Assembly: GCA_050084515.1 (NCBI GenBank)
Contig: CM114271.1
Span: forward strand, 21,576,001 to 21,640,000
Direction: 5' to 3'
DNA from: Blasia pusilla
Taxonomy: Eukaryota
DNA length: 64,000 nt
The translations under genes were made by a program, and so were the position numbers. How positions within the stretch are numbered: position 1 is the first letter of the stretch; every line of letters begins with the position of its first letter. This document shows, one piece after another, positions 15,592 to 38,692 of the stretch. A model generated the notes under the pieces. The model searched no databases and was not told the DNA's origin. It worked only from the letters and a program-made list of their open reading frames with translations.

Positions 15592-16999
15592 CTCGAAATT
15601 CCTCCCTCCCTCTCCTCTCAATCCTCTCCAACCCCTCCACTCGCCTTTCCCCTTCCTTTTCTATTCCTCCTCAAACCCTCCCCGAGCCCCACCCCCATTC
15701 AGCACTCCCTCATCCATACCCCTCCCTCCCTTCCTTCTTCCTCTTCCTCCTTTTCCTCCTCCTCCTCCACCACCACCACAGCAATCGCGCCCTCCACCTC
15801 CCTTTCCTCTCCTGAAACCCTGCACAACCCCCGCATCCCCCATCCGATCACTCGCCCTCGGAGTAGGTGTCCAGCTTATTTCTCTCCTCGAGCATCGCTA
15901 CCCCTCGCTCACTTCGCTTTCTCGAATTCCTCCCCTTCGCTTCGCTTCCCTACGCTTCCCGCACCAGCGGCAGCGAGCGAGCGAGCGAGAGAGAGAGAGA
16001 GCTCGGAAAGGAGGAGAGAGGGGAGGAGCGCAGCGCGCCACGAGAGATGCTACATGACTCTCTGCATCGAATATCGACGCCAGGTGATACGCACTGCAAG
16101 ATCTCTCTACACCTGCGCCAACCTGCGACGGCGCGTCCTCCAGAGGAGGACGTCGGACGTCCCTGCGCTCGCCACCCCATCCGAGTTCTCACCAACACTG
16201 TGGACGGAGTTCCAGATCCCCACGTCTTGCTGCGACGAGACTCGTCGCGTTGCGGTGTACGGAATCAGAACTACTGGTATGGTACTGTGCACTCTTGGAC
16301 AGAACTTTTGGACGGCACTCTGTGTCCAGTTGCTACAGATGGTGTTGGACTCCGATAGAGTCGTGCAGGGCTTCCGTGTTCTCCGTCCTTCATCAGCACA
16401 CTCCGGACTCGACCGCCATCCACCTCCATCACGAACTAATCCCAAACCTATAGAAGACGCTATCCAATGAAAAGCTCTTAAACGATATTCTCAAACGAGC
16501 CATGGATAAAATAATAAAAACTGCTGTCATTTGTGAAATGCCATAAGATGATTATATTTGGTATGAGGATGAAATACCTGATTATAATAATGGAGGCTAT
16601 GTTAGTGTGACGGTGTAGTTGACATATTGGATAGATGAGTGCAATTTGTTATTGATTAATGTTGGAATGTGTTATTAGCTCTTTCCAATGCATGCAAAGA
16701 TACAAGACTCTTGTCAAAGTATACTGATGTTGATACTATTGTGGCAATTATACTATCTTTGAACCTATATATTGATAATATATAGGTTCAAAGATGCCGA
16801 CATATACTCCAAAACTCCATCAAAAGTGCAGGTGTATGAACATTACAAAACAGCATTGACATGGGTTGAATCATAGGGTCTGAACATTTGGCAAGCTGCA
16901 GAAAAGAAATTTAATGCACCTTAGTCGTTTAAGTGATGAAACAAGTAGCAAGTTATTAATTAAAAGAGTGCATACACACAACTAATATTGGCATTGATT

Positions 17000-17352
17000 A
17001 GGTGGTTGTCGTGTAATATGTGCTCATAGACATGTTTGGAGCAGAGTATGAGAGTATTAGATGTCTTGGGGGGATCAACACGACGGGTTGTTGTAGTATG
17101 GCAGTGTTGCGGGGATGACGGCACGGATAGTGCTAGATATGTATAGGATAGGAGATCATGTTGGGGACACATATGTGTGTGTTGTCTGGAGTTAGGGGGA
17201 CCCAACTGCAAGCTAGGGGGCAGTTGTGGGGTCATGGTGTATGTGCTTGAATATGTTTCATTTATGTGTGGATCTACCCGTATGTCGGTGAAGATCGGTG
17301 TTGTGTGGTATGTAGATGTGACGAGCGATGTGTATGCGCACGACAAATTTCT
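17000..17352 (+). mobile_element. Eroded 3'-end fragment of a relative of the DNMT-Gypsy element (end of coding region, PPT-like tract, B repeat)
   Basis: 17185-17350 aligns by eye with 36488-36670: tctggagttagggg...ctagggggc...tgtgtggatc..cccg...gaagatcggtgttgtgtgg..tgtagatgtgacgagcgatg...tgtatgcgcacgacaa-tttc. Confidence 0.8.
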
Positions 17353-19669
17353 CTCGGGAAATTTTTTAATATTTTTTTAATACTTGATATCTTCTTATGA
17401 ATTTTTAATTAAAAACTATTTGAAATAAAAATTTTATTTTTAAAATAGTTAACACATTTATATAATTAAATTAAATTTCTCCTCATCCTAATTTTTAGCT
17501 TAGTATATGATTAAACTACAAAATCTTAGAGATGCTTCATAAACTCATTTCATGGACAGATTTCATAAATAGTTCTCATTCATATCTCTCTAAATTAGCT
17601 AATGCCCATACTAATTTGATTACAAAAGTCAAACAAATAGAGAATTTAAACTAATGACACTCGTAAGGTACATTTGAATAGGACGCAACCAATGGAATTC
17701 ATGTGTCACATCTTTTACATTGGAGTAGAGAGTATGCGCATTGCATATGTAGGGAAGTCAATAGATCTTGGATGATCTATTGAAGACAAGGGTAATCTCA
17801 ATGTGTAGATTTTCCTATTTTGGGCTTATTTTAAACTATTTTGAATAACTTACCATTTCCATTAAGTTATATGTTTATACTTTGTCTACTTTTTATTTTG
17901 GGAAGTTCCCCTTGATTATATGTTATGATTGAAGAGGTGACCTATGTGCATAGGTCATTGAGAAGAAAGTTTGGGGGAGAGGATAAAGAGAGAGAGAGAT
18001 TGAAGAGTGTATTTTCTTAGGATTCTTTCTTTAATTTGTTGAGCCTCCTTCCATGAGACGGTGGAGATATAGCCCCATTTGCATTATCAATCATTCGAAC
18101 CTTTCACGACGAGAGAAGTTTTGGTTTGATATAAGAGAGAGTTAGAGGATATATGAGATCTGCTTTTTGAATTTACAAAGAAAAATGAAAAGAGTTCCAT
18201 AAGAGAGATTTATTGGAAGAATGACTCTAGCATGGAGAATCATTTGGGTGACATCTCCGTGGTCTTTTTGTTGGTTTTTGTAGGTTGATGACATGTTGCT
18301 CATATAATAGCTTCTCATAGTTCTGTTGAGGATCTTGGCTTGATGATTTTTTATTAAGTGTAGGGATTCTTTTTGAGTAGAACTACTATGCATGGAAGTA
18401 TTGCTAAATTTTTAGTAAATCAGGTAGGTTGAAAATTGGCTATTCTAAGAAGTGGCTAATGAGAGAGTGTGTGAGAATAGGGGTTGATTTCTTGCTATTT
18501 TAACAAATCGTTAGTTTTTTTGTGGGACGTAAATACATGGAAGAATTTTCCGTGTTTTATACAAAATCAATGCTACATTTTGTGTAAAAGTTGTTGTTAC
18601 AGATAGACTAGAGTTTTAATGTTTCCAAAAAAAAAAGATCTTGAAGCAAGGAACAGAAAACCAAAAAGGGCCAAATGGTAGAGGAAAACATAATGATGGA
18701 CCTTATCCAGAGGATTGCTCTTAGCCATAAGATTTGATGGTACAAAGGCATCCCAAATGGTGCAATAGGACTTCATGATGTGGTTGAGTGACAGAGATAT
18801 CTTTTTGTGTTGAAGGTTTGAAGGGCCATGCGCCCCCTAAATAGGAATCCTTTGTTTCTTTTTTCAATATTTTTGATGATTCTTTTATCATTCTTTATGA
18901 TAGAAGTAATGATTCTTTTGGAATCATTACTTGAAAATCATGATGCCATCTCATGTTTCATAGGTCCTAATTGCATTTAGGACGACCTGATTCATGGTCC
19001 TTCATGTTGGAGTGAGTAGATAAAGTGCATTGAGATGACGTAACTATTTCTTGGTGAATGTGTTTGGGCTTATCGACCTGTCAATAATATCCAAAGGGAT
19101 ACTTATTGATTGATATGTACAAGTCACAATTCCTACTTATGGATGCATAGAGTTGTTGGGTAATCGATTAGAGTTGATTTTTATCGAGTTGTGACAACTA
19201 TGATATAATGCACTACTAGATCGCCATATCGTCTTACTTATGGCTGCACTCTATCGTCAACGATGTCATGTTTTTTAGGATGGGTCAACGAGTTTACAAT
19301 AGGGTGACTTCAAGGATAGTCAAGAAAAGCTTCAAGACGTCGAGGATGACCTATTGAGGCCACGGGTAACCTGAGAGAGCACGTCTGTCTTTCGTTTCGG
19401 CTCATTTGGAGCTATATAGAGAAACTTACTATTTTGGGCAAGTTGTCGTTTTGAGTAGAGTTTACTTTATACTTTGGGAAGTGGCCGTTGACCCCCTACA
19501 GTAGGTCAAGAACCAAGGAGGTAACCTCCTAGCATAGATTACCGTGAAGAGAGCTTGGGAGAGTGAAGGGGGTATACCCAAGGAGAGAGAGTTTTGGGGC
19601 TCATTCTCTCTTTGTTGAACCTCTTGGCCTATGGTCCTCCTTGCTTTTTGAGTAACCCAAGCCTTTCAT

Positions 19670-20559: not shown

Positions 20560-23500
20560 CCAATTTGCTATGCGTCGTGATTGGTAGCCGCTCAACGATG
20601 ATCGAGTACCAATTGTTGCGTCGTGCTACACCGCTAGTAGCCACACCGCTAAATCGAGGGTCATTACGGTGTCCTTTCGGGACTTGGAGAGGCAAGGGGA
20701 TATGCATGAGAGTAGCTCTAGAGGATTTACTCAGAGTGGCGCGAGGTTTTGAGGGTCTCAACCTGAAGGACCGCCTCGACCTCCTTCTAGATGGTCCTCA
20801 GAAAAGGAGAGGGCGTAGAGGAGTTTATTTGTGCATCATCGCACACAATGGGTGGTTCTATCGCCAGGGCGTAAGAAATGAACGACCAAGATAGAGGAAC
20901 GCGAACGTTTTGGGAGTTGTGGATATTATAGAGTTGCACTACTTCATCATGAAGTTTAGGTAGATGGCTAGGAACTCTAGAGAGCTCAACTTGTTCACCG
21001 CATGGAACGGAATATTCCAACACTTGGAGGATAACCATGAGTTTTCCAAGTGATACGTACCCAAGATTGAGGCCTCGAGACTCTACTATGACGCACATTA
21101 CGTGTCATGGACTGAACCATTTCTAGATTAGGAGGAGCTAGGAGAGGCTACTTCCTCTGCCACTAGAGAGGTTTCGGGAGGGGTAAGTCAGACTGGGGAA
21201 ATTGCATCGTCTAGTCGGGTTCGTCCTAGGTTCAATCGCGTTATTCAGTTCTTTGCGGAGTTGCAGAGGAACTACCAAGGCTATGGACCGATAAGTTACG
21301 GAGTATCCACGACTTCCATAGGCGCACAAGGGAAAGTTTATGGGAGACATTTACTCGTTTGGGACGTTTGATTAGTGTCACTTAGGGGGTGATAGAGGCC
21401 TAGGTTGTTCCGACATGGTATGGGATGCTGGAGCAGACTTGTGGAGACGGGTGAGGGATGCGATACTTACGATGCGCACCTCAGCTATGTTAAGAGATGT
21501 GTATGAGATGGCGGAGTGTATTTGAGCGCAACCTGGTTGAGGAGAGTGTAGCAACCATGAGTCATGTGCGCGAGCAATCACGATTGCTTACACCACTAGT
21601 GAAGCAATGTGAATTTTGAGAGAGGAAAGTGGCACCATGAGTTTAGGGAGGTTATTGTTAGTATGTGCCATGGAGACCTACGCCATCATATGCGGCACAT
21701 CAACACCCGCTAGAAGTTATTTATTGGGCATGTGGTGGAGCCCATCGCCAACAAGATTGCAGTTGTCAAGGTAGTGGAAGCGTGCCTCAACCTGGAGGAG
21801 GAGATGGACCCGCACCAGGAGTCTACGAGTGTGACCATTATCAATGGTATGGTCATACATGCACCAAGTGTTTCAGCTTATATCGTGAGTTACGTCCGGA
21901 CTAAGGCTCGGACAGAGAGGGCACCAAAGCGAGTTGGTGGTCTGGGTGGACATAGAGGTTGTGTGCTAAGTGGTCTCATTGGGGGACGAATAGTTGGATT
22001 TTTCCGTGGGGTGATGAATATGCCTGTGGAGGAAGTATAGGTCTACCACCTAGATGAGTCAAGGGAGATTGTGAGCGCAAGGTTAGGATGGATGCTAAGA
22101 TAGAGTTTCTGCAATGGCTGATTTTCGCTCTGGCATTGAGGTTACTCGATGCCGAATGAGTGGCATTAACATTATATGGAATAGCTAGAGACATGGAGGA
22201 TCTTGGTTAGATCAGATGTGTGGGGCTACAAAGATGGAGGCAATCGTTATCGTTACACGTGGAGCAACCGTAGAGTTCTTTCCATAGAGAAGGGAGGCCA
22301 TGAAATAGACCAGGGTTCCTCAATCTTTTATGTTATGTCAGGCGATGAGGACCCCATTGATAGATTTTGATCACAGTTCCCAGAGAGTGGATGTTGTTGG
22401 TGTGCAAGCACGGAAGGCGAGGGAGAAGCAAGTGGGACGAATCCTATTCTTGATGCTGAAGGGGAGCACGTCTTCAATACATTGTTTGGAGCGACCACTG
22501 CTATGTACCCTGCCCCATGGTTTTAAACTTCCTATGTTACAAAGTTGGGAGGATGCACGCCGAGTTTTATTGGCTCGCCCCTATGCTAAGTGAGTGCAGA
22601 GATGGTATCCTTGCCTCATGTTTAGAGATGCTTAAGAGGAGGTGGTAGACTTGCCCTTGGAGCCTATGCTGGGGCCATCCATCTCAGATTCATGGCAAGT
22701 TGTGGTTGCTAGGATGGCGCCGATTCCGTCTAGACGTATGATAGAGCATGCCATGGTTTCTCCATGGGTTGTTTTGTTGGATAATCGGGGAGAAGTCTTC
22801 TATTTGGTGAGTCCAAGAGGTAGAGAGTTTTGTCTACAACGCATCTTGTTGGATTTGAGAGGGCAATCCTTGATGTTGGGAAAGGCGGCGTTTACGCGAG
22901 TGGGCCTGACGAGGATCGATGTGGAGCGTTGCCCATTCAGGATGCACACATCCTTGGGTGGAGCTTGAATGAACGTAGTTATCACCCAACATGAGATCAT
23001 GGTGGGGTTCAACCATAATATCCGTTAGATGAGTCCGTGGTGCGGGCCAAGGGAATAATAACCAATATTGAGTCCTATGACGTCTTGGTTGGAGGAGTAG
23101 TGTTGTACACATTAGGATTTCTTGTAGATGATAGGAAGGAGTCAATGTCCTATAGACCAGGATGGCAGTTAGGTGATGGGCGACTTAGCTAGTTCCTTGT
23201 TTGATTCACGGGTGGAGTGATCCAGAAATGATGAGGAGAGATGGCGATACTTGCAACATTAAGTAGTGCCATCATTTGGCATAATGATTTGATTGAGGAG
23301 CATGTCCATGCAGGAGACACGTCCATGCCTAAGACTTCTATGGAGAGGAGTGTTATGATGGTTGTATCATTCCATGGAGGAGAGCATTCTGGGGCTCAAG
23401 TGAGGAGCTTCGATGCTTGGTTGATGAGCACATGCGGATGTCATGGAGCGAGACGTTTGCACTAGAGCGTGACGGGTTAGAAGAACCCCAGGTAGCCGAG

Positions 23501-23950
23501 AACGATGGCACCCTTCGACACCCTGTTGATTGTGTGGTGCATTCGAGAGGAGGATGTTCAAGTGTTGGATCCCTTTGGAGGGATCAACACTGGATTGGTT
23601 GTTGTTTTGCATGAGTGCATATGTAGCAGTATTTGTATGTTGAGCTTGATGAGATTGCGAGGTACATCTCACTTTGATATATGGCGTAGTTACGCCTTCA
23701 TTTTCCTGACTTTTTGTTTGCGTTGGTCGTATAGGGGTTCTAAAGTTCCTTACTAAGGTACATTTCTTTGTTGGGGCCATAGGACTTGGAGTGGGTAGGG
23801 ACCATTGATTTGGTCATTGTTGGTTGGCCATGTGAGGGCCACTCGAGTGTTGGACGAGGAAGCGGTTTAGTTGATGCTCTGTCTAGATTATTTTGGGAGA
23901 TGATGAGGATCTTGCGACACTTGCAAGAACATCAGTCTCATTCTTCACCT
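20560..23950 (+). mobile_element. Degenerate, 3'-truncated second copy of the DNMT-carrying Gypsy family (gag, protease, N-terminal half of C5-MTase)
   Basis: Fragments collinear with the 27-37 kb element: gag (cagttctttgcggagttgcagaggaactaccaagg, like EFFRKLRKSYQG, ~21245; WYG...RRVRDA ~21415), Zn-knuckle remnant ~21830, protease VVLLDNRGEVFYLVSP...QRILLDL (22642-22968), MTase motif I VQVLDPFGGINTG (~23555) and motif IV DLVIVGWPCEGHS...LFWEM (23786-23940). Confidence 0.88.
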
Positions 23951-26050: not shown

Positions 26051-27324
26051 CTGCATGCATGGAAGGGGTCCCATAACCTTCTAAACTTCACATGGACCAT
26101 AAATATAATTCACTTTTCTTGCCCTATTGTATTATGTCTCTAAAACATAAAAAAAGTTCCGCATATAAAGTCTCCCCGAAATTTCTTTTTCTTCTCCCCA
26201 TTTCAAAATTAGGTTGATGTCTTTCCTTCACCCAAATTGAAAATACAACCCTTTAAAAAAAATTGGACCCTTCTTTTATTACATAACGATCTCTCTTTCT
26301 TTTGAAACTATTTTAATACAAATTTCACCATCTCATAAATTATGAAAAACATACCACTAGATGAATTTTGAAGAGGAAAAGGTGTTCCCTACTTGAGGTG
26401 CAACTCATCCACATTATAGAATAATTTTTGAGAAAAATTAAGTGAAACATAGTGAAACGTACCAACTAACCCAGTTTGTATATGAAAAGGAGAGACATAT
26501 GAGCATCGATGTACTGAGAGAAGCAAAAATTTCTCTTAGTTGATGCCTACGAAGTACGAAGACTTTCCAAATTTGCGCCAATGAATCTATACTCTTATTG
26601 AAATATGGGGGTTACTATGTCTGGAAAGAAGAAGAAAAGTACCGTCTATAAGAAGTGAAGTCTTATTTTTTAAAAAAATGCCAGTGAGAGTTACTTCTTG
26701 GATCGAGATCCTCTCTATTTTTGCTTCTAAAGTCCTCTTTATTTTTGCCTCTAAAGTAATATAACTTATTCTTGAATGAGACAAGAAAGGCTAAAGGAAC
26801 TTTCGAATGTCCCTATTATTGTGATGAAGATCTGATTGTGTTTTATTCGCAGGGACACATGTCAATTAGGTAATTTAAGACAACCCTTTTTAAGTGACCA
26901 AATTTAGTATCATATGTGTTTCGTACCGGGCTCCGGGACGGCCTTAAATCAACAACGCTTTCAAATGCGGAGGGGGTTATCAGAGGAAGTGAAGGAGAAG
27001 CACGACGATTGAAGGTGCAACGCCAAATTGAAGGAGCGTTAGATTGTATGTGGTAAAAATCTTCACCAAAGCTTTGATTTTATTGTTCGAATGGCTCCAA
27101 TTTTTCTGGAATTTACGTCAGGGCCAGATCACTATGATTGTGGAATTTTTGTAAGAAGATGACTTGCAATCATGGTACCATTACTAAGGCGACTGTCTGT
27201 GCTCCTGACTTCTGGCAGTTCCTTTCGAAACCAAGCTTGGGTTGCCATTTCATCGGTTGATGATTCCACTCGCATAGAGTTGGTTCTCCAACATTTTCAC
27301 CTCACGCACACACTTTTATAACCT

Positions 27325-27807
27325 TGTCACATCTGAGTAGCCGATAGGCCGAGATCTATCGTGGATAGGGCGTAGGAGCCAGCGGACTATCTTGAGTGTA
27401 ACTTTGTCCCACGGTGTCGGATGAGGTTGAGGATAGGTCCATTGTGTCAGGAACGTCGTTCTTGACAACTTTCATATTGAGGTTTTTTACAGCCGGGTGA
27501 CTTGTTGACCAGGTCACCCGCCCCTCGTAACCTGTGTGCGCAGGTTACCAAGGGAAGGGCTATTTTTAGGGGAAGAGCCTTTTGGCTCCTCCCAACCCTA
27601 TATAAGAGAGGAAGATGGCTTTCCTAAGCCATCTTTCTCATGTTGGACCGTTGGAGCACCTCCCTTGTATGTGTGTGAGCTAGGACTAGGGTGCTAGCGT
27701 CCGGATTCCTTGATAGCACAAGGTGGACGAGGCTCGATATGCCAATGTAGATTGAGGAGTGGAGTTTTAGGCTGGGTGTGCAATTTTTATTACTCTTTAT
27801 TTTTACA
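27325..27807 (+). repeat. 5' terminal repeat A1 (LTR-like, TGTCAC...TTTTACA; contains TATA box)
   Basis: 27325-27804 is a direct repeat of 36666-37138. TATATAA at 27599-27605. Confidence 0.92.
27599..27643 (+). promoter_or_regulatory. LTR TATA box and predicted transcript 5' end (self-primer sequence GCCATCTTTCTCATGT)
   Basis: TATATAA at 27599. The sequence starting 29 nt downstream (27628-27643) is the exact reverse complement of 27805-27820. Confidence 0.7.
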
Positions 27808-27820
27808 TGAGAAAGATGGC
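27805..27820 (+). promoter_or_regulatory. Putative self-priming primer-binding site (ACA/TGAGAAAGATGGC)
   Basis: Directly follows repeat A1, lacks the TGG of tRNA PBSs, and is 16/16 complementary to 27628-27643. Confidence 0.72.
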
Positions 27821-28277
27821 AGGGGGATGGTGGGAATTCGTTGTTTGCAGGTAGGCAAGCGAGTTGCCTTGGTCGGGAGCCCCTGGAGATGTGTGTGTGA
27901 CATTTTGTGTGTCATTTTTCTGTTCGGAAGGCCGTGGGCGGAAGCACTGTCCGTTTTTCTCAGATTTTGCCGGTGCGGATTGATGGGGGACAGCAGTAGG
28001 GTGTAGCGCAGGTTGTGTCGACAGGAGTAACGTCGTCTTATAGCGCGTGGAATGTCGGGAGTACCCAGGGAGAAGAGTTAGAACTTGCAGCCGCCAGGGG
28101 GCTGTCAAGTAAAGGGCGGCTAGGTTAGGTCGCCAAGGCTAGGCGACGGACGCTTGACGGGCGCGACGGCAGCAGCAACAACAGCGAGGGCGCGGACGGC
28201 GAAAGAATGCGCGGAAAGGCGGACGGGAGAGAATGGATGGGCGAGAGGTGCCCCCTCACTCCCGCATTTACTCCTTA

Positions 28278-28581
28278 CCCCCCCTCGGCGCATTTACAAG
28301 GGCTGCATAGGGCCGCGGGTCCTTCCCCCCCCCCTCCCCTCCCTCTCCCGCACTTGGGGAGGGCCGCATGGGCCGCGGGCCCTCCCCTCCCTCCGTTGTT
28401 CTCCCGCAGGTTGGGGGGCCAAGGGATGACCCCCCCCCCCGGGCGCATTTACAAGGGCCGCATAGGGCCGCGTGTCCTTCCCCTCCCCCTCCCCTACCTT
28501 TCCCGCACTTGGGGAGGGCCGCATAGGGCCGCGGGCCGTCCCCTCCCTCCGTTGTTCTCCCGCAGGTTGGGGGGCCAAGGG
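28278..28581 (+). repeat. GC-rich ~155 bp tandem duplication in the retrotransposon leader
   Basis: ggcgcatttacaagggc...gggggccaaggg occurs at ~28287-28425 and ~28442-28581. Confidence 0.9.
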
Positions 28582-29405
28582 CCGACCCACATAGTAAGGG
28601 GAGCTATGTGGTTGAGCGGGCTTGTACGCAAAATTTGCAAAGTGAGATTTTGCACGGAGATTATTTTTGGAAGACTGAACTGACTGTCGGCAAGGTGGGT
28701 GAGTTACCACAGACAGTTTGCGGGGGAGAGTTGACGATGGAGTATCTGTTGACGGGAGGATCGACGTGTTGGTCGAGGAGAGTGTTGTGTTGCGGAGATT
28801 GTCATCTCATGACGAGGAGTGCATGTTGACGGTGCAGCAGGTTGGAGGGCGTGATCAGGTTACCCATTCCAGTCCCTTTTCCCGCACTTGTCGTGTGTGA
28901 TTGAGAGTGCTGGGTATCGGGTAGTAGCTGGTGCTAGATGGGTGCAGTGATGGTGACGAGTGTAGATTCTTTTCATGTGTAGCATGTTGGTGGATATACG
29001 GCGGTTTCCGAGTAGGGGTCGCGTGTATGACCCGAGAGAGTGTCGCTAGGTTAGGTAAGCAATTGGGAGGCTCATGGTGAGCCCTAGTGTTGAGCGTGCG
29101 TGAGGCCGGGTATGTCATCACGGGATTGACGTTAGCATAGGTGAGCTAGTGAGGCGTGTGGGAGACTCTCGGTGAGTCTGAGTGCTTGAGCGGGTGAGAC
29201 AGGGTTTGTCATCACGGCGTTCTTCCAGGGTTCGGAAGAACGGGGTAGTGCGAGCAATGGTAGTGGTGTGTCACTGAGTGGAGTGAGATACCGAGGAGTT
29301 ACCAGTGAGGAGCTCCCTCGACATCCATCCGTGACTGGATCGTCATCACTGGACACTGAGTCTGGTGACGAGATCACCGATAGAGACAGTAGTACTTGGT
29401 AGGAG

Positions 29406-30600
29406 ATGGACGACATGGGCCATCGGGGCATGCGTCGTTTCTCGGGTGCAGTGGGCACCATCGACTTAGATGATTTCATCCAAGAGCTCGATACATGGTG
29501 CGACTTCCAGGAGATACGGACCCCGACACGGGTCAACCCTTTCATGGCATGGAAGGGGTTGTTCCAGCACTTGGAGGGTCCTCCGAGGGATGACTACATG
29601 GAGTTTCAATCACTATATTCAATAGAGATTGATGCATGGAGGATGTATTGGGCTCCAGGGTATGTGTCCACTAGTGGTCGCAAGGCATATGATGGGATTG
29701 TGAGAGGAGAGAGACCCACACCATCAACCCGGAGACTAGATGGAGAGGAGGGGAGTGAGACAGGCGATGTGGCAGAGACCTCTGGTGGTAGAGGGCCACC
29801 CAGCTTCAGCCCCACAGTGGAGTTCTTCCGAAAGTTGAGGAAGAGCTACCAGGGCGTACGCATCGACAAGCTAAAGAGTCTACATGATTTTCAGTGACGA
29901 TCGGGTGAGAGTCTGAGAGAGACATTCACATGCATGAGGAGGCTGATCATTGCTACGTTTGGAGTGACTGAGGTGCAATCAGTCCAGTATTGGTACGGGG
30001 TTCTCGACCGAGAACTACGGAGGAGAGTCCGAGATGCGGTGCTGATTCACACCGCGAAGCCCACATTGAAGGTGGTCTTTGAGTTGTCTGAGCGTATTGA
30101 GCTCAACATGAGTGAGGAGCAGGTAGTGGCCGCTGGATTTTCTCGAGAGTCGACGGGTCCACGAGCGACGGTGACCCCACAGGTGCCACAACGAGCACCA
30201 GTACCACGGGAGCGGGCCAGTGTGCCTAGAGAGCAGGGCGGGTACCGTGAGCCTATGAGGCAACGACCCGCACCTACATATGTTGCCCAACAGGGACCAA
30301 TGTGGTCTTGTTGGACGTGTGGAGGGGCCCATAGGCAGAGAGAGGCGCCACAAAGATGGGAGAGGACCACCAGCGCCTCCGATTGCTCAGGAGCCACAGA
30401 GGATGGCCCCACCACAGCACCAGTGTGACCATTGCCACAGATATGGTCACACTAGGGATAGATGTTTTGACCTTCGCCGAGGGGCACGTCCAAAGGTAGG
30501 CCGAGGGCCTGGAAGCGGTTGTCCTAGAGGAGGTCGGGGAGTTCTTCCTGGACGTGGTGGTAGAGGACCACCACCAGCCAGAGGAGATGGAGCAGAGCTC
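29406..30600 (+). pseudogene. gag: Gag with two CCHC-type zinc knuckles (disrupted)
   Basis: RRFSG...DLDDFIQELDTW N-terminus; in-frame TGA at 29895; CWTCGGAHRQRE at ~30309, then a frameshift to CDHCHRYGHTRDRC at ~30424-30465. Confidence 0.8.
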
Positions 30601-31279
30601 TAGAGCCGGCACTTCTCTCACGATCGATCGGTTGGAGGAGAGGATTGCTGCCGCCATGACGATGATGCGGCTTAGGAAGGCACGGAGTGCGGCGGCTAGT
30701 GTGACTCGGCTTCTACCTCTTACCCCGACCCAGTGAGGATCTCGCCAATATAGGATTCATGTGTAGTGCGGCCCAGGTTGAGGCGGTGCGCAGTGGTGAC
30801 TGGGAGTCTTTGGAGAGGCACCGAGCCATCGAGAGGTGGAGTTGAGATTGACCCACCGAGGGGACCGATGGGCGGCAGCCAGGGTTCCACGATGCGTTCA
30901 CATTGTCGGAGGCACTACACACACCATCGATGGTGCCTCGACGACCAACGGTGCCTACACTTCAGGCACCTACGTCGACGTCATGACGACTTGGAGTGAC
31001 AACTCCTATGCCGGCTCGAGTGGAGTCTGTGTCGACCATAGTGTTGGAGGTGGCCACCAGAGTGAGTCAGACTCCGCTATTTTCCGCCATAGAGTTGGCG
31101 ACGTTGGGAGTTGGACCAGCTGAGATGTTCTGGTTGGCCGCCACGTTGTGTGAGCGTGGAGAGATGATTGCTTCTTGTTCAGAGGTAGTTGAGGAGGTGG
31201 TGGACTTGCCCTCGAGCGGTCTTTGGCCGGGACGTTCCCCACGAGTCATGGCATCGGCGACGGCACGCGGTTGGTAGAT

Positions 31280-31760
31280 ATGCCAACTCGACCGGCCATA
31301 GAGCGAGCAGTGGTGACACCTGGAGTAGTGTTACTGGATAATCGAGCTGGAGTATTTCGCTTGGTTAGTCCGACGGGGATGGTATACCACCCGCAACGCG
31401 TCCTTCTTGATTTGGGAGCGCAACCCTTGATGTTAGGGAAGGCGGCGTGTTTAGCGTTGGGGTTACGGAAGGCCGACATTGAGCCTTGTCCCTTCCAGAT
31501 ATAGACCTCGATTGGGGGCATATCACCCACTCAGTATATGACCCGACGGGAGATTGTTGTCCGAGTCCAGCCAGAGCATGCGACGGATAGTGCTATGGTG
31601 TGCACACGTGCGATTACGACACCAGCTGAGTCGTACGATGTGTTGGTGGGGAGTACAGTGTTATATCCCCTAGGATTCATCCTTGACTTGTGGGAGGAGA
31701 CCGTTGCTTATCGGCCAGGATGGCGGTCACGTGACGGCCGGATGAGTCAGTTACCTGTGC
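31280..31760 (+). pseudogene. Retropepsin-like aspartic protease domain of Pol
   Basis: RVLLDLGAQPLMLG active-site-like motif and downstream YDVLVGSTVL; in-frame TAG at 31502. Confidence 0.75.
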
Positions 31761-32121
31761 AGTTTGCGGGACGAGGTGGTCGATCACGAGGCGAGTCTGT
31801 GACCATATTGGCGGCTTTCACAGGTAGTGTTAGCTAGCCAGGAGAGTTGTCGGAGGGGAACGCACATGCGAAGGATGTCCCAGTAGCGGATAGTCCCGCG
31901 GAGAGACATGCCATGGCGGGTGTCTCTTCCTATGTTGGCGAGGCCTCTTCACCATTGTGGGGTACGACTTGGGAGCTACAGAGGAGTGCCAACGACCTTG
32001 TGAGGCAAGCGTGGAGTCATGTTTTTATCCCAGAGCAGCGAGAGTCACGTGGTGATCGGGCTCTTGGAGTGGAGACGATGACCCCACTAGATACCACACC
32101 TGTTGTGTGGCAGTGCCCAGA

Positions 32122-33075
32122 GGAGGGTGTTAGGGTATTAGATCTCTTCGGAGGGATTAGCACCGGATTGGCTGCCATATTGCAGGCGGGCATACTGGTG
32201 CATCAGTTTCTTTATGTGGAGAGAGATGAGACCGCGCGGCGAGTATCATTACGTCACGTGGCAAGATTGGTCCAGAGGTATCCTGAGTTGTTGCCGGTAT
32301 CTGCAGTACGGGGATATCAGCATACGCTACCCACCGATATCTCTTTGGTGGGGGTGCAGGATCTGGATGGAGTTGGCACCATTCATTTGGTGATTGCTGG
32401 ATGGCCATGTCAGGGTCATTCATCAGCTGGCCGAGGATTTGGATTGCAGGATCCGAGGTCAGGGATGTTTTGGGAGATGTTGCGAGTAGTACGACACTTG
32501 CAGGAGAGTCAGATATGTTCTCCAGCGTACATTTTGGAGAACGTGCCATTGTTGGGAGACACTCGTGCACGTGTGATGACGAGTGTACATCAGGTGAGGT
32601 CCTGGTTGGGACCTACTGTGTTGTTAGATGCAGCGAGAGTTGGGTCACGTGCCCACCGTCCACGACTGTGGTGGACGAACCTGATACCATCAGAGGTACT
32701 GAGTCGAGCATACAGTGGAGTCCAGAGAGCACCACATCTCATAGTGGATGCTATTTTGGGCTCAGGGCGTCGATCTCAAGTGGTGACACGGGATAATAGA
32801 CCACCGTTGGCCATGGCCAATAGGGTGGGGGAGTTGAGGGCAGCCTTACCTACGTTGGTGAGCTTCCCAACATCCCATGCCTTTCGTCAGGGAGGGCCAA
32901 GCATGATTTGGGATGAGGTGACCGGAGTATTGGAGGAGCCTATAGCAGATGAGCGCGAGCGCGCCATGGGGTTCACTACCGGTACTACGACGGTGCCAGG
33001 GATGACTGAGGCATCACGGAGACAGGTGTTGGGTCAGACGATGGACCTCAACTGTCTCACATGGATAGTCAGCCT
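32122..33075 (+). CDS. C5 cytosine DNA methyltransferase domain, DNMT3-like with non-permuted motif order, embedded in Pol
   Basis: Uninterrupted within ORF 31847-33340. Motif I VLDLFGGISTG, II YVERD, IV AGWPCQGHS (catalytic PC at 32405-32410), VI ILENV (ENV at 32537-32545), VIII AHRPRLWWTN, IX ERERAMGF, X RRQVLGQTM. Same reading frame as the protease (ORFs 31223, 31538) and RT (ORF 33383). Confidence 0.93.
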
Positions 33076-33382
33076 AGGTATGGCTGAGCAGAGACGGATG
33101 CGAGTGTCATCCATGCCGTCACGTCCACGAGTTGGACCATTGCCTCACGAGTGGTCAATACAGGCATTGGTCGGGGGCGAGATGAGGAGAGATAGGCACC
33201 CATGGACTTCCTGGGACGTCGTTCAAGCAGAGAGTGCGAAGGCGGCTAGAGTAGCACATGTTCATTTTTCAGATGTGGAGCATGGTGTAGGAGGTCAGAG
33301 TGGAGTGGGTGTTGCGGAGGTGGCTAGCGTTGCTACATAGCAACCAAAGCTGGAGGTTGCGTCCTCTCCGAGTGAGGTCACG

Positions 33383-34830
33383 ATGGAGACTTGGGAGCCT
33401 GTGATAGGTCTCAAGTTGATAGGAGGAGAGCCACGGCAAGTTCATAGGTTTCTGAGAGGGCATGTCAGTTGTTTTGCCTTCAGTATGAGAGACTTGGGTA
33501 CGCTGAAGGGTCTTGGGATACGGATTGAGTTGGCTAGTGATACGCTGATCTTTCGTCGATCCTACAGGTATTCTGATATGGAGCGAGCCTTGATTCAGAT
33601 CAGGAGTCAGGACTTGTTGGAGGCAGGACTTGTGGAGTTATCACATGGGGAGTATGCATCTGCCACAGTCATGCCGGCAAAGAAGGATATGTATGGCAAT
33701 TGGACGGATAGGCGGATGTGTGGAGATTACCGTCCTATCAACCGACAGACGAGGTCAGATCGGTACGCCATGCCTACTCCTGAGGAGATCTTTGATGCGG
33801 TAGGCCATGCAAAGATCTTGAAGACTTTAGATCTCCGTCTTGGCTATCATCACTTCCTATCGAGTTGGAGGACAGGAGAAGACAACATTCTGGGGGATAG
33901 ATCGGTTTGGGAGAGATTGCTTGTATCAGTGGCGGTTCTTACCATTTGGGTTGAAGAACGCGCCTGCAGAGTTTCAAAGAGTGATGGATAGAATTCTGGC
34001 TGGCTTGGATTTTGTACGATGTTACATAGATGATATTATTATCTTCAGTTCCATGGTTGAGGAGCATGAGCGACACTTGGAGGAGGTGTTTCGGCGATTG
34101 CAGTTACATGGACTGAAGTTACATCCAGGCAAGTGCAGATTCTTTCAAGAGCAGATTGAGTACTTGGGACACACCATATACCCGAGTGGGTTAGGCGTTC
34201 AGCAGACGAAGGTAGAGGCTATTGCGCAGATTCCACGCCCTACAGATGTAAGTCGAGTCCGAGCATTTCTTGGACTAGCGAACTTCTATCGACGGTATGT
34301 CAAGGGTTTTAGTGCGATCGCAAAGCCTTTGACCTTGTTGACGAGACTTGATCAGGTTTGGTTGTGGGGAGATGATCAGGAGCGAGCATTTCAGGAGCTC
34401 AGGACAGGTTGCGTCCTCACCCATTTCTGAGAGACCGGTTAGGGTCGCCCATTCGATTACATACAGTTGGAGCATGTTGGGTCTAGGAGCAGTGCTTACT
34501 CAGAGGGATGACGAGGAGAGGGAGTTCGTTGTGGCTTACGCGAGCCGATCAAACAACATTGTAGAGGCGAAGTACAGCTCCTATGAGGGAGAGTGCTTGG
34601 CTGCAGTGTGGGCCGTGGCACATTTCAGGTGCTATTTGTTCGGCAACCCTTTCACACTTATCACTGATCATCAGCCGTTGAGGTGGTTGATGGAGTCCGA
34701 CAAGCTTACGGGAAAGCTTGCCAGGTGGGCTCTATTACTACAGGAGTATGAGTTCGAGGTGGTTCATAGGCCAGGTGGGCTGAACCAGGATGCGGATGGG
34801 TTGGGTCGTAACCCATGTCCGAGTCAGAGA
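33383..34830 (+). pseudogene. pol: Reverse transcriptase and RNase H (two frameshifts)
   Basis: RRMCGDYRPIN...YAMP, LDLRLGYH, LPFGLKNAPAEFQR, YIDD (34023-34034), YLGH, FLGLANFYRRYV; RNase H LGAVLTQ...YASR...YSSYEGECLAAVWAV...TDHQPL...LARWAL...ADGL. Confidence 0.95.
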
Positions 34831-35202
34831 GACGTCACGGGAGCTCGATGGCACGGAGAGAGTGATGAGGAGATGGTGCCCGGTTGGCATGCATCTGCCT
34901 ATCTTTGTTGGTTGACTATGGTAGGTCAGCCACATGTGATGACTCCAGTGGTGGGGTTGGATGATGAGTCTTTGGATCCGGAGGTCACTGAGGAGGCGAC
35001 AGGTGGTCGTGATATCCATGACGACGTGGAGGTTGTGGAGTTCTTGCGCAGTTGCGTCATAGCGAGCACGGTGAGTGCTAGGGAGCGGGATCGGATCCTA
35101 TAGAGGGCCAGGAGGTTCAGGTGGGAGGGGACTCATATTTTACGGGTATGGGGAGATGGTAGGATACGAGTGGTACCTCATCCTTCCCAGTGAGCACGTG
35201 TA

Positions 35203-36451
35203 GTGCGACATGCCCATAAGGAGTTTGGACATTTTGGAGTAAAGCGTACTAACAACTTACTCCAGGTTCAGTATTGGTGGCGCGGCATGCATACTGGGGT
35301 ACATCAGTTTGTGGCCAGATGTATGCTATGTGACAGAGTGCGAGCATCCTTCAATGTTCCCACTCCGCAGTTGCATCCTTTTCCGATTATGGGTTTAGGT
35401 TATCGGTGGAGTTTAGACTTTGCGGGACCTTTGCCATTGACAGGGCTTCATCATAGGTACGTGTTGGTCATGGTGGAGCATTTCTCCAAGTGGATAGAGT
35501 TGGTGGCACTACCAGACAAGGCGAGCGAGGGAACAGCTTATGCGTTTCTAGATTGTGTGCTTAGTCACTTTGGTACACCGGCGGAGGTGTTGACTGACCA
35601 GGTACCGAGTTCGGGGAGAGTTTCAGGCCTTGTGTGATCAGGCGCTGATAGATCACCACACCACGTCTAGAGATTATCCTGAGGCATATGGGTTGGCGGA
35701 GAGAGTGGTACAGACGGTGAAGAGAGGATTGCGCAAGTATGGCTTGCAGCGGGGACAGTTGAGGGAGTGGGACCTACAGTTGCCATGGTTGGCTATAGGT
35801 TATCGCTTTAGTCGGCACGCATCCTTGGCGTCATTTTCACCGTACTTTTTGCTCTTTGGGAGAGAGCCAGATTTACCCGCAGCGATTCGACGTGACATGG
35901 CGGAGGTGTTAGATCTTGATGATCCAGATGTGTGGGTGCAAGCATGTTCTCAGAGGGCAGAAGTTTTTCGTATAGTTATGCCTATGGCCTTTGAAAACTT
36001 AGCTATTGCCCACCATAGAGATACATTGAGGTACGCGACCATTCGTGGAGGAGGTTATCGTCCAGGGATTAGGAGGTCTCATCTTGGAGATAACGTTTAT
36101 TTACAGCAGGCGGCACCCACGACGCTAGATGTCACTGTAGGGCGCACGACCCTACGTGTGCGCGAGGTATTACCGACCGGAGTCCTCATGTTGGAGGGAC
36201 GGGATGGTTTGGTTTGGAAGGATCATGTGCGCAATTGTGCGCCATGTCATCTTCCGAATGTAGATGGGACGGTGGATCCGAGCTTGGCAGTGGTACCTGC
36301 AGGCTTGAGGTGTATGTTGTGCGGATCTGCGAGGGGTGCAGCCACCATGTTGGTATGTGATGGTTGTTCTCGAGGGTGGCATATGTCATGTCTAACCCTC
36401 CCTCTTGATGTGGTTCCCACGGGACGATGGATGTGTCTGAGATGTATATAG
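35203..36451 (+). pseudogene. DDE integrase (H2C2 zinc-binding and rve core) with C-terminal PHD finger
   Basis: HKEFGHFG...CMLC; WSLDFAGPLP; TDQ (frameshift ~35600-35630); GLAER. C-terminal CMLC...CDGC...WHMSC...WMCLRC is a C4HC3 PHD at ~36311-36446. Confidence 0.92.
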
Positions 36452-36525
36452 GGTAGTAGGTCATGTCAGAGAGATGTGATATTTTCTATCTGGAGTTAGG
36501 GGATCCAAGCGCCCACTAGGGGGCG

Positions 36526-36663
36526 GTTGTGTGATCTCCATGTATATGTATGAGTTTATTTTTGTACATGTGTGGATCGACCCGTGTGTGGGGAAGATTG
36601 GTGTTGTGTGGTGTAGATGTGACGAGCGATGTATGTTGTGTAGCGGTATGTATGCGCACGACA
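36526..36663 (+). repeat. Internal repeat B1 (138 bp), preceded by PPT-like TAGGGGGCGG
   Basis: Direct repeat of 37139-37276 with 4 mismatches counted by eye. Confidence 0.93.
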
Positions 36664-36665
36664 AC

Positions 36666-37138
36666 TTTCACATCTGAGTAGCCGATAGGCCGAGATCTAT
36701 CGTGGATAGGGCGTAGGAGCCAGCGGACTATCTTGAGTGTAACTTTGTCCCACGGTGTCGGATGAGGTTGAGGATAGGTCCATTGTGGGGAATGTCGTTC
36801 GACAACTTTCATGTTGAGGTCTTTTACAGTGGGTGACTTGTTGACCAGTCACCCCCCTCAGAATCTTTGTCTTGTGAGTTACCAAAGGAAGGGCTATTTC
36901 TAGGGGAAGAGCCTTTTGGCTCTTCCCAACCCTATATAAGAGAGGAAGATGGCTTTCCTAAGCCATCTTTCTCATGTTGGGCCGTTGGAGCACCTCCCTT
37001 GTATGTGTGTGAGCTAGGACTAGGGTGCTAGCGTCCGGATTCCTTGATAGCACAGGGTGGACGAGGCTTGATATGCCGATGTAGATTGAGGAGTGGAGTT
37101 TTAGGCCGGGTGTGCCATTTTTACTACTCTTTATTTTT
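36666..37138 (+). repeat. Repeat A2 (copy of 5' repeat A1)
   Basis: Matches 27325-27804 but starts TTTCAC instead of TGTCAC and lacks the terminal ACA. Confidence 0.93.
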
Positions 37139-37276
37139 GTTGTGTGATCTCCATGTATATGTATGAGTTGATTTTTGTACATGTGTGGATCGACCCGTGT
37201 GTGGGGAAGATCGGTGTTGTGTGTTGTAGATGTGACGAGCGATGTATGTTGTGTAGCGATATGTATGCGCACGACA
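37139..37276 (+). repeat. Terminal repeat B2
   Basis: Copy of B1; ends ...GCACGACA followed by ACCT. Confidence 0.93.
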
Positions 37277-38214
37277 ACCTGTCCTGGATACTGAATGGAA
37301 AAATCGAGTTTCCAGGTCACATCATGTCCTAATTGCAGTCACACCAAGATGAGGGAAGGCCTGCGAACAATAGATCACTTGCAACAGAAGACACATTGAA
37401 ACCACATTAATGAATCGGTGTTCAAGATCCTTCTTCCTGTTAAGAGAACTGAAATTGGGAGGGTGATTCAAACTTGCAAAGGGGACGGAGAAGGGAAGAT
37501 CTCACTCGACCGTCTCCATCATCCGGGCGATGCACCTTACGCCTTCCCACGGTGCACTTATCTGGGCCGATAATGAGTGTCAAGGCGACGATGAGACACC
37601 ACCACTCTTTCATGTTTCTGAATAGTGTCGTTGTTTTTTCATGACAGTTTGAGTTTACACGTCTTTCTATGTCTTATGGAGTTGAGAGAGATTTCCTGGG
37701 TCCATCACATCAAGATGTCCCGTGATCGCAGCTCTGAGATTGCATGCAGTCGTAGAGTGATTGGTACGCTGGTGCAATGAGGATGGTGGAGGTGGAGATC
37801 AGTACGATGAATTCATAGAGATAGATCACTTCAGATGGAGAAAGAATCATCGTTCTCTAGAGAAGACGATAACCAGATGATTGTGCAGAACCTATTCAAG
37901 GGATCCAACGGAAGGACTCCTAGAAAAACGGCGGAAGGTGCGCCACGCGCTCTTTAGCACATCGTTTGCCATGAACTTCCTACACGACTTCCTCAAGTAT
38001 CCCCACTTGTCCAAACCTGACTGGATGGAGGCCAGGGAAAACGAGGAGGAGGAGAAGCAAGAGAACGTGCAAGGTGTCGAGTCCTAGGAAAAATACAAGG
38101 AAAAGTTACGGTGCAAGAACTTCAAGGAGAGTAGATTTATAGTTTTGCATATAGCTGCTCTACTCCATAAGGAGGAGATTGTACGCAGACTTCTACATCA
38201 AGCTGATCTAGAAG

Positions 38215-38692
38215 CGCGTAGATGCACCGGGAGACTATCTGAGTCAGGAAAAAAGCCCCCTTATTTAAGCTTGACTCCGTTCGTAGGTGAGGAGTGAGAC
38301 AGACAGAGAGAAAAGAAAAAAGCCCGCGTAGACAGCAGCCTGCCCGTGCTCATACGCTCAATACGTAGGTGCGACCAGAGGGTAGAAAAAAAAGAGCGCC
38401 CATGCTCGTCCGCCCGATAGGTTGGTGCGACCAGAGGGTAGGGGACAGAAGTTGTTCACAGTTGGGTCCGCCCGATAGGTAGGTGCGGCTACAGGGGTAG
38501 GGGAGAGGGTAAGTGAGGGGTTCTAAGTCGGGTCGAGCCTATTGATGAGCGCGGTCCCTTTCAGCCCTTTTTGGCTGAAGTCTTGACCCCTATTCCTTTT
38601 GATGATGCCAGAAATCGTTTTGATATACGATTTTATTTTGTTTCTATTTTGTTTATTATATTTGATTTGGAAGTCACCTTTTTATTTCTTTG
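38215..38692 (+). pseudogene. nad3: Nuclear insertion of mitochondrial DNA (NUMT): 3' part of a group II intron plus a nad3 exon fragment
   Basis: 38594-38692 encodes [31 protein letters not shown], a conserved Nad3 segment. Upstream sequence ends ...cttcagccc-tttt-ggctgaag...gacccctAT, resembling group II domain VI and 3' splice site. Left boundary is approximate. Confidence 0.85.

Follow-up and report, generated by a model that had tools for sequence, protein, structure and literature searches.

The window analysed here, a stretch of 64,000 nucleotides from Blasia pusilla (GCA_050084515.1, contig CM114271.1, positions 21,576,001 to 21,640,000), carries on its forward strand a decayed Ty3/Gypsy-type retroelement that combines gag, protease, C5 DNA methyltransferase (DNMT), reverse transcriptase (RT), RNase H, DDE integrase and a PHD finger. 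The Pfam matches follow each other in the order DNMT, RT, Gypsy-type RNase H, H2C2 and rve integrase, PHD; the protease and gag were placed by tblastn of the related proteins P0028 and P0036. The gag-like region (29403..30600), related to a CCHC-type protein (P0036 aligns to 30165-30540), is interrupted by stops, as is the frame of the aspartic protease region (31154..31834), recognized from its alignment to P0028, a PF13650 protein. An open frame of 500 codons (31838..33337) encodes a C5 cytosine DNA methyltransferase, identified by Pfam and protein relatives at the level of PF00145 membership. It precedes a frameshifted reverse transcriptase (33341..34427; Pfam and tblastn), an RNase H of the Ty3/Gypsy type (34342..35100; PF17917/PF17919) and a DDE integrase, also frameshifted, made of an H2C2 zinc domain and an rve core (35194..36310; Pfam and tblastn), whose C-terminus is a PHD finger (36311..36445; Pfam).

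The pol order is that of Ty3/Gypsy elements, protease-RT-RNase H-integrase, with the DNMT inserted between protease and RT. The same domain order is found in the relatives L013, L052 and L076, and P0086 is one full polyprotein with all the domains. Protein relatives occur in liverworts, mosses and green algae. The element is of a bryophyte type and belongs to a lineage of Ty3/Gypsy-type retrotransposons of green plants with the organization gag-PR-DNMT-RT-RH-IN-PHD. Tyrosine recombinase (PF00589, Phage_integrase) gave no match in 13 ORFs of the window at E up to 0.01, in 20 window ORFs (overlapping the 13) at E up to 5 or, among three relatives, in 28 ORFs scanned with the 0.01 limit.

Repeat order, termini and target duplications

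Instead of lying between two equal LTRs, the coding region separates split direct repeats. Repeat search and blastn place A1 at 27325-27804, then the coding region, B1 at 36526-36663, the dinucleotide AC, A2 at 36666-37138 and B2 at 37139-37276. These analyses and the letters of the junctions bear out what the initial annotation had read there, namely the A-internal-B-A-B order (internal is abbreviated int below), its coordinates, the ACCT on both sides and the outer ends TGTC...GACA. On the left, the flank ...ATAACCT, whose last four bases are one copy of the target-site duplication (27321..27324), is followed by TGTCAC, the start of A1; TGTCA is an integrase-type end, and A1 also contains a TATATAA box (27599-27605) and a presumed R-U5 part. 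On the right, B2 ends in ...CGACA, GACA again being of the integrase type, and the second ACCT follows (37277..37280). B1, which is the 5' part of the RT-defined repeat (start of U3), also ends in ...CGACA; AC and then TTTCAC, the start of A2 with one G>T relative to A1, complete an internal palindrome of joined ends, GACA-AC-T(T)TCA (36660..36670), the putative integrase site. The end of A2, ...TTTATTTTT, directly abuts GTTGTG, the start of B2, in a joint (37131..37146) where the end of U5 appears to be joined to the start of U3.

A1 and A2 share 93% identity including gaps (27 mismatches over 470 aligned bases, plus 9 gap columns), and 36526-36665 differs from 37139-37278, the B stretches as paired by the repeat searches, at 4 of 140 bases; such lengths and identities rule out chance repeats. 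With 5.7% divergence between A1 and A2 and numerous stops and frameshifts, the window copy is old and dead.

Target duplications were compared between the window copy and relatives from metagenomes. Among the 13 copies with both ends, 10 have a perfect 4-bp duplication: ACCT in the window, TCTC (L043), CATA (L076), AAGG (L078), CACA (L061), TTCA (L030), TGTG (L034), TACA (L045), TGTT (L052) and AACG (L016+L022). The remaining ones match at three of four positions (L024, L037) or at two of four (L047). All copies with visible ends start with TGTCA, the start of A, and finish with GACA, the end of B, so that the TG...CA ends and the 4-5 bp duplication usual in Ty3/Gypsy elements are present here.

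These duplications bear on two other ways of producing the layout. A circle could have been captured by microhomology or at a sequence-specific target, as the initial annotation had proposed as an alternative, and the presumed empty site of the window, AACCTGTC, does resemble the joint. However, the duplicated targets of the relatives are unlike each other and unlike the joint, which makes such a capture very improbable. The other is insertion of a circle by a tyrosine recombinase, as in DIRS/PAT/Ngaro-type elements. A1-int-B1-A2-B2 is indeed the order of PAT and Ngaro (PMC5890265, Fig. 1e legend). Like the window element, PAT-like and Ngaro elements (order DIRS) have an internal joint between right and left ends, and a circular or end-joined intermediate has been proposed for them. 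They nevertheless use a tyrosine recombinase, whereas the window element has a DDE integrase, a 4-bp duplication and an RT and RNase H of the Ty3/Gypsy type. To our knowledge, PAT-like and Ngaro elements make no target duplication and tyrosine recombinases do not produce any; staggered cuts by DDE enzymes do. Of the features that define the DIRS order, the split repeats are thus seen here, but neither the recombinase, which is missing from the ORFs scanned in the window and in three relatives, nor the absence of target duplication. The duplications contradict a route through tyrosine recombinase, and we consider it extremely improbable.

Census of the layout in relatives

In all, 80 related metagenome loci, each with a DNMT alignment, were fetched, and A and B could be mapped in 46 of them. 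The DNMT protein of this family is only 55-60% identical to that of the window, and all copies examined are decayed. Three copies (L043, L076 and L078) are complete A-int-B-A-B elements, two (L013 and L065) read A...B-A as far as the end of the contig, and L061 reads A...(partial A2)-B2; in addition to the window copy, it is these six insertions that have B-A(-B) at their 3' end. Counting distinct 3' ends, 7 of 25 carry B-A(-B) and 18 pass from int-B into the flank. Neither B nor A-B precedes A at any of the 23 distinct 5' ends, and comparing A-B-A at 5' ends (0/23) with B-A(-B) at 3' ends (7/25) gives a Fisher p=0.0099.

Most relatives are of the A-int-B form only, which corrects an earlier note.

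A one-off rearrangement of an ordinary BA...BA element, or a misassembly, was also considered. For the window copy itself, none of the public contigs listed spans the flank junctions to support their assembly independently. However, independent insertions of the diverged family show this order again, with the same ends and with 4-bp duplications, ordinary BA...BA copies, against which the initial annotation had asked that its reading be checked, are not seen at any of the 23 distinct 5' ends, and the same layout is described in Klebsormidium (PMC5890265, figure legend). The permuted order belongs to a whole lineage; an accident of this locus or of its assembly can be set aside with hardly any reserve.

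The A-int-B copies could also be regarded as the primary products, arising from a one-repeat circle opened once or from linear cDNA cut at both palindromes, in which case the rarer A-int-B-A-B copies alone would keep the lineage going. Their large share of 3' ends and their proper 4-bp duplications are in line with this, as is the equal number of both forms (5 to 5) in the younger clade; reverse transcription commonly gives one-repeat circles as by-products. On the other hand, the end branches of A-int-B copies (0.056-0.18, n=18) are longer than those of A-int-B-A-B copies (0.029-0.095, n=6; one-sided Mann-Whitney p=0.015), and A-int-B-A(-B) is the form of the two youngest copies that could be classified, which fits a later deletion between B1 and B2. 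In addition, A-int-B cannot supply a terminally redundant RNA, so that its frequency would imply a very wasteful life cycle with mostly sterile products. A primary origin of the A-int-B form is thus unlikely, although it deserves some weight.

Reverse-transcription signals and repeat joints

A primer binding site and a polypurine tract are both present, as expected of Ty3/Gypsy elements, but they are positioned relative to A and to B, respectively. A polypurine-type tract, ctagggggcg (36516..36525), adjoins B1, in agreement with the initial annotation, and is conserved in relatives. That annotation had also placed a primer binding site after A1: the site is there (27806..27820) and is not of the tRNA type; its 15 nt are the perfect reverse complement of 27628..27642 in the element itself, some 30 nt past the TATATAA box of A. 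This latter stretch, the second arm of a hairpin, is probably the 5' end of the transcript and would act as self-primer. The window has 3 matches, against 0.2 expected. In the metagenome family, a different complementary pair of 11 nt, (A)CTCAAAGAAC and GTTCTTTGAG(T), occupies the same two places, and this change of letters on both sides is a compensatory one. The site is thus a putative one of the self-priming kind, complementary to the presumed start of the element's own transcript. With the polypurine tract before B and the primer site after A, the repeat defined by reverse transcription is B+A, which upholds the functional LTR proposed earlier. In this lineage, the termini that reverse transcription generates are not those used by the integrase.

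Tf1/sushi elements and the plant Tcn1 clade also have a primer site complementary to the start of their own transcript rather than to a tRNA (Neumann et al. 2019, PMC6317226). In the window element and its relatives, the complementarity (15 nt and 11 nt) is to a putative transcript start. Ordinary LTRs and a chromodomain characterize Tf1 and Tcn1, in contrast to the permuted repeats and the integrase ending in a PHD finger found here.

The two kinds of joint behave differently. Between B1 and A2, the joint is GACA-NN-TGTCA, with NN being AC in the window (where the start of A2 has since mutated to TTTCA), AT in L043 and GC in L076, L078 and L013 (the A2 start of L076 reads TATCA). The same motif is found in three more diverged groups (in the flank of L044 at 16976, in L074 at 8655 and in L080 at 8234); L074 and L080 have it about 4.9 kb downstream of the DNMT start, which is also its place in L076. 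According to sequencing reads, the family has a high copy number in organism A. A total of 53 sense-strand RNA reads pass from the B end through GT into TGTCAC..., which means that the B-NN-A joint is transcribed.

The A2|B2 joint, compared in five insertions, varies between copies. It is exact in L076 and exact but for one substitution in L078; in L043, 14-17 nt of filler are accompanied by 3 additional bases that stem from the polypurine side; in L061, U5 continues into 9-10 nt of the primer binding site, to which 5 nt of filler are added; and the window lacks 1-3 nt, in keeping with the loss of bases noted initially. In organism B, one contig has the A end connected with the B start. This variability, together with the primer-site remnant of L061, makes the A2|B2 joint look like end-joined cDNA termini. 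The remnant also fits a report, cited in the reference list of PMC6317226, that the self-primer of Tf1 is not removed.

Proposed integration route and comparable systems

The route that we consider probable is that the ends of the cDNA are joined and that the integrase then opens the internal palindrome and inserts A-int-B-A-B with a 4-bp duplication. Transcripts would start in A1 and would have to extend as far as R in A2. Reverse transcription, self-primed in the manner of Tf1, would then yield a linear cDNA, BA-int-BA, in which the outer end of A and the outer start of B would be joined as in a 2-LTR circle, giving the A2|B2 joint. Staggered cuts by the DDE integrase at GACA-NN-TGTCA inside the upstream repeat would allow the opened molecule to be inserted. 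The A-int-B copies would most likely be later B1 x B2 deletions, although some may have arisen directly, from one-repeat circles or through cuts at both palindromes. The initial annotation had proposed such an opening of a joined, 2-LTR-type cDNA, and all the comparative evidence gathered is in line with it; the circle and its cleavage by the integrase are what we infer from this evidence. We know of no documented case in which a Ty3/Gypsy integrase cleaves at an internal site.

A closed 2-LTR circle would contain two identical palindromes, and random opening should yield A-B-A-int-B as often as A-int-B-A-B. The absence of A-B-A from the 5' ends suggests that the choice of site is directed or that A-B-A collapses fast, the longer A copies recombining. 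It could also be explained if integration came first and joining later: the integrase would cut the linear cDNA at the palindrome of its left repeat, the new ends would be inserted and the host would join the outer termini, with no free circle, provided that no palindrome but the one some 115-140 bp from the left end can be reached. The product would be the same, also in its 4-bp duplication and in the variation of the A2|B2 joint, filler and primer-site remnant included, and the sequences do not separate this order of events from one in which the circle comes first. However, it would risk a chromosome break at each insertion, and we know of no precedent for it; we regard it as rather improbable and retain the joining of cDNA ends before integration.

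Split repeats are not foreign to Gypsy elements, contrary to what had been assumed initially. KnitGypsy-Dnmt3 of Klebsormidium nitens is described as having a DIRS repeat structure with domains typical of Gypsy, a combination that the legend notes and leaves unexplained (de Mendoza et al. 2018; PMC5890265, Fig. 4c legend). Like the window element, it has a Gypsy-type pol with a cytosine methyltransferase inside and repeats in the order A-coding-B-A-B; its ends, target duplications, primer sites and mechanism are not given in the part of PMC5890265 that presents it. Its host is Klebsormidium, whereas the relatives of the window element occur in liverworts, mosses and green algae, and the two were compared by their descriptions; no Klebsormidium protein was among the related proteins found by protein searches.

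The integrases of foamy virus and HIV-1 are reported to cleave the palindromic LTR-LTR junction of 2-LTR circles (PMC1180852, PMC1905944, PMC4372172). As far as these reports describe it, a palindrome of two abutted ends is cut and integrable ends are regenerated, as proposed here. In these viruses, the palindrome arises where the RT-made ends meet, whereas in the window element it lies inside the repeat, and the A2|B2 joint is left uncut and carried into the genome. In IS3/IS911, a DDE enzyme akin to retroviral integrases acts on a minicircle junction, in which the ends are a few bases apart, and generates a short target duplication. These are DNA transposons without reverse transcription, and their likeness to the window element is in mechanism only.

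It is quite possible, if still tentative, that a whole lineage of DDE-integrase retroelements, whose green-plant hosts range from algae to liverworts and mosses, has split its integrase sites from its reverse-transcription ends, and that a cDNA with joined ends, re-opened at an internal palindrome, is an obligatory step for it. If so, LTR-type retroelements would have a third route of integration, one that has converged in its layout on tyrosine-recombinase elements and in its chemistry on the minicircle transposition of the IS3 type.

Anatomy and genomic setting of the window copy

The element lying between the two ACCT copies of the window (27321..37280) contains two pairs of direct repeat blocks, located by repeat search and blastn: A1 (27325-27804) and A2 (36666-37138), B1 (36526-36665) and B2 (37139-37278). 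In their alignment, A1 and A2 show 27 mismatches over 470 aligned bases plus 9 gap columns; B1 and B2 have 4 differences over 140 bases. At the left edge, the flank ends with ACCT, followed by TGTCAC, the start of A1. The end of B1 (CGACA) is separated from the start of A2 (TTTCAC) by the two bases AC, and the end of A2, TTTATTTTT, is directly followed by GTTGTG, the start of B2. At the right edge, B2 ends with CGACA and ACCT follows. The repeat search, blastn and these junction sequences bear out the split order A-int-B-A-B (int being the internal coding region) and the joints claimed by the initial annotation. None of the listed public contigs crosses the flank/A1 or B2/flank junctions of this copy, so its assembly stands without independent confirmation. 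Among the joints listed from the public reads, none would reveal an empty site.

The B1/A2 joint motif has a near match within A (GACAACTTTCA), some 140 nt past the A start (27464-27474 and 36801-36811), which aligns with the point where the A of the metagenome family described below starts. Judging from sequence, the A of the window family looks as if it had grown by 140 nt on the 5' side, with a shift of the integrase site.

The reading frames of the element, on the + strand, are broken but their domain order is still legible. A gag-like part aligned to a relative of CCHC type (about 30165-30540) is followed by a protease region (31154-31834) aligned to the related protein P0028, which bears an aspartic protease family; both were placed solely through named or Pfam-marked relatives. 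Then come a C5 cytosine methyltransferase, open over 500 codons (31838-33337), a reverse transcriptase (RT), a Gypsy-type RNase H, an H2C2 and rve integrase and a C-terminal PHD finger. The 5' 2-3 kb of the element have no Pfam match, either in the window copy or in three relatives. The nearest named relatives of the methyltransferase are from Calypogeia, Marchantia, Riccia and Sphagnum, and more remote ones from Closterium, Cymbomonas and Monoraphidium. Decay is seen in all copies examined; one related protein, P0086, is a complete polyprotein with all domains. Scanning viral contigs with the full P0086 polyprotein revealed no relative.

In the species from which the window comes, the family is present at very high abundance: word depth reaches thousands on the element versus less than 50 on the flanks. 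In a second organism of the public read data, one contig has the end of A linked to the start of B, and the window flanks have no depth. The untranslated leader of the window copy carries a GC-rich unit of about 155 bp twice in tandem (28278-28588). Public contig depth is very low on 27970-28403, reduced on 28404-28837 and in the thousands elsewhere in the element; the leader stretch with the tandem units thus seems particular to the window copy or its subfamily.

The window also carries ordinary plant genes, which points to a bryophyte-type plant as host, and the element is located in gene-bearing DNA. A FORGETTER1/strawberry-notch-like gene, encoding zinc ribbons and a P-loop NTPase N-terminus (12700-15660, - strand), and a gene for a GOST seven-transmembrane protein (58211-59290, - strand) are host genes. 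Just right of the element, 37518-38385 shows a steady RNA depth of 12-15 with the first mate on the - strand, and two positions with loose ends (37959 and 38025) resemble exon boundaries in a transcribed neighbour gene.

A layout shared by metagenome relatives

Alignment of the methyltransferase with metagenome contigs led to 80 loci with 42-70% protein identity. Self-comparison was run on the 35 loci of at least 9 kb, and A/B mapping on all 80, with matches in 46. Eight loci are repeat samplings of the same insertions, as seen from identical flanks, and each insertion was counted once. The nucleotide similarity of this metagenome family to the window element is only about 67%, but the design is the same. 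Three loci (L043, L076 and L078) are complete A-int-B-A-B copies, two others (L013 and L065) read A...B-A as far as the contig end, and L061 reads A...(partial A2)-B2. In 18 distinct insertions, the 3' end is int-B followed by flank, and the A side is also seen in 7 of them, A-int-B being the form of most copies. Neither B nor A-B was found ahead of A at any of 23 distinct 5' ends. The A-int-B-A-B layout is thus a trait of the family and no accident; the anatomy of the element and its conservation are directly seen.

Two further pieces of related elements lie in the window itself. At 17135-17345, the remnant of an older related copy has an int-B-type 3' end: the final ~90 nt of internal sequence, together with the purine tract, precede a B-like block, 75-90% like B1, which ends exactly at GACA before an AT-rich flank. 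At 20900-23940 (+ strand), a piece of a second, remoter element bearing a DNA methyltransferase (DNMT) gene encodes a gag-like part, a protease and the N-terminal half of the methyltransferase, with 33-55% protein identity to the main element, and breaks off near 23940.

All copies start with TGTCA (one base being changed in rare cases) and finish with GACA. A perfect 4-bp duplication flanks 10 of the 13 copies with both ends known; in the other three, 3 of 4 positions (two copies) or 2 of 4 (one copy) agree. The ten duplicated words are each different, as is typical of staggered cutting by a DDE integrase that has no particular target. Microhomology or site-directed capture of a circle, put forward initially as an alternative, is thereby removed.

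Probable self-priming, internal joints and a proposed integration route

Immediately before B1, the window copy and all ten relatives shown share a conserved purine tract (ctaggggg...). Directly 3' of A1, the sequence is the perfect complement of a stretch located about 30 nt downstream of a TATA box in A. This complement spans 15 nt in the window (27806-27820 versus 27628-27642) and 11 nt in the metagenome family, where the sequence is quite different but the two sites occupy the same places. Compensatory change of this kind argues for self-priming of the sort known from Tf1/sushi elements and the Tcn1 clade of mosses (PMC6317226). With a purine tract before B and a primer site after A, the repeat built by reverse transcription would be B+A. 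On this basis, U3 would consist of B followed by the initial 300 nt of A, the remainder of A being R-U5. The expected cDNA form is BA-int-BA, of which no integrated copy was seen among the mapped relatives. The opposite assignment, an A+B LTR whose 5' B was deleted, is rejected: in 11/11 copies shown, it is B that adjoins the polypurine tract and A that adjoins the primer site.

The two internal joints behave differently. The B1/A2 joint always consists of a right end, two bases and a left end. These bases are AC in the window, AT in L043 and GC in L076, L078 and L013, and the joint is a perfect palindrome with GC or AT. Two remoter groups (L074 and L080) have the motif as well, as far from the methyltransferase as expected. 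By contrast, the A2|B2 joint is different in each of five insertions. It is exact in L076 and, save one substitution, in L078; L043 has a filler of 14-17 nt and three extra bases of the purine-tract side; in L061, 9-10 nt of primer binding site and then 5 nt of filler come after U5; 1-3 nt are missing in the window. An inherited joint would be alike between close relatives, and this variety is as expected from fresh end joining of cDNA termini. The primer-site remnant of L061 fits a report, cited in PMC6317226, that the self-primer of Tf1 is not removed. Tandem insertion of a mini A-B element is ruled out by this remnant and by the B1/A2 spacing, which is always two bases.

Beside the DNMT element of the metagenome locus L044 lies a 3' module (16820-17477) from a third family, which looks unrelated and shares this design. 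It contains, in order, a purine tract with a G run, B1, GACA-GT-TGTCA, an A2 that includes a TATA box, and B2.

The best-supported account of the layout is a cDNA with joined termini, reopened at the internal palindrome. The RNA would start in A1 and take in B1 and the R part of A2; self-primed reverse transcription would yield BA-int-BA, whose two termini would be joined; the integrase would then cut the palindrome of the upstream repeat, two bases apart, and the opened molecule would be inserted. In a sister subfamily, 53 sense RNA reads span the B-NN-A joint. We infer the circle, the cleavage by the integrase and the transcript ends. The main interpretation proposed initially, a 2-LTR-type circle opened at its internal B/A junction, holds as the best reading. 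As a variant, the cDNA termini could be joined after integration rather than before, with no prior circle. The palindromic joint of the element is similar to the minicircle junctions of IS3-type elements. Cleavage of palindromic LTR-LTR junctions by retroviral integrases is described in PMC1905944, PMC1180852 and PMC4372172.

One feature does not yet fit the reopened circle. In a closed two-repeat circle the palindrome occurs twice in identical form, but A-B-A-int-B was never seen: A-B-A is found at 0/23 5' ends versus B-A(-B) at 7/25 3' ends (Fisher p=0.0099). Either the choice of palindrome is directed or A-B-A-int-B copies soon collapse via their longer A repeats. In a tree of 67 copies (built after removal of 8 loci that resampled an insertion and of 6 whose overlap was insufficient), end branches are shorter for A-int-B-A-B (median ~0.06) than for A-int-B copies (~0.10; one-sided Mann-Whitney p=0.015); for L022, L047 and L053, the stem common to near-identical samplings was added to the end branch. 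The A-int-B copies are therefore taken mainly as later B1 x B2 deletions, although some may be direct products of one-repeat circles.

The B blocks (36526-36663 in the window; 14787-14901 in L076) contain many TGTA and TG runs, in which plant polyadenylation enhancers are rich. Should transcript ends lie in B, termination would be leaky at B1 and final at B2, and the A-int-B-A-B order would gain a function.

Classification, precedent and significance

The element shares its repeat order with PAT/Ngaro elements, but their defining tyrosine recombinase has no match among 13 window ORFs (E up to 0.01), among 20 window ORFs overlapping this set (E up to 5) or among 28 ORFs from three relatives (E up to 0.01). 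Lacking this recombinase and carrying target duplications, the element does not belong to the DIRS order. It matches Ty3/Gypsy elements in its proteins, ends and duplications, but not in having two equal terminal repeats. The sole printed description of such a combination found is the figure legend on KnitGypsy-Dnmt3 of Klebsormidium nitens (PMC5890265), to which our element is likened by this published description and not by sequence. The literature search found the name KnitGypsy nowhere else, and no account of bryophyte elements or of a mechanism. This kind of layout is therefore already noted in print but never explained. What is new here is the comparative evidence: an invariant palindrome, a variable end-to-end joint with a primer-site remnant, 4-bp duplications and self-priming.

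Textbook LTR retrotransposons insert a linear cDNA by its own ends, 2-LTR circles being regarded as dead ends. We argue from sequence comparison that here the joint of the cDNA ends enters the chromosome at each insertion and that the integrase acts on an internal palindrome. This reading is based on the permuted repeats, the invariant palindromic joint, the variable joint with a piece of primer site in one copy, and the 4-bp duplications. If true, a natural system becomes available for testing the old idea that circles are integration precursors, and the Klebsormidium layout, noted without comment, gains an explanation. It would also mean that standard LTR finders mis-annotate an abundant bryophyte family, reading A+B as a solo LTR and missing the full elements. 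The presence of a DNA methyltransferase and a PHD finger on the element has a bearing on how retroelements handle host chromatin, and with the comparative evidence assembled, a circle-type integration route is now directly testable.
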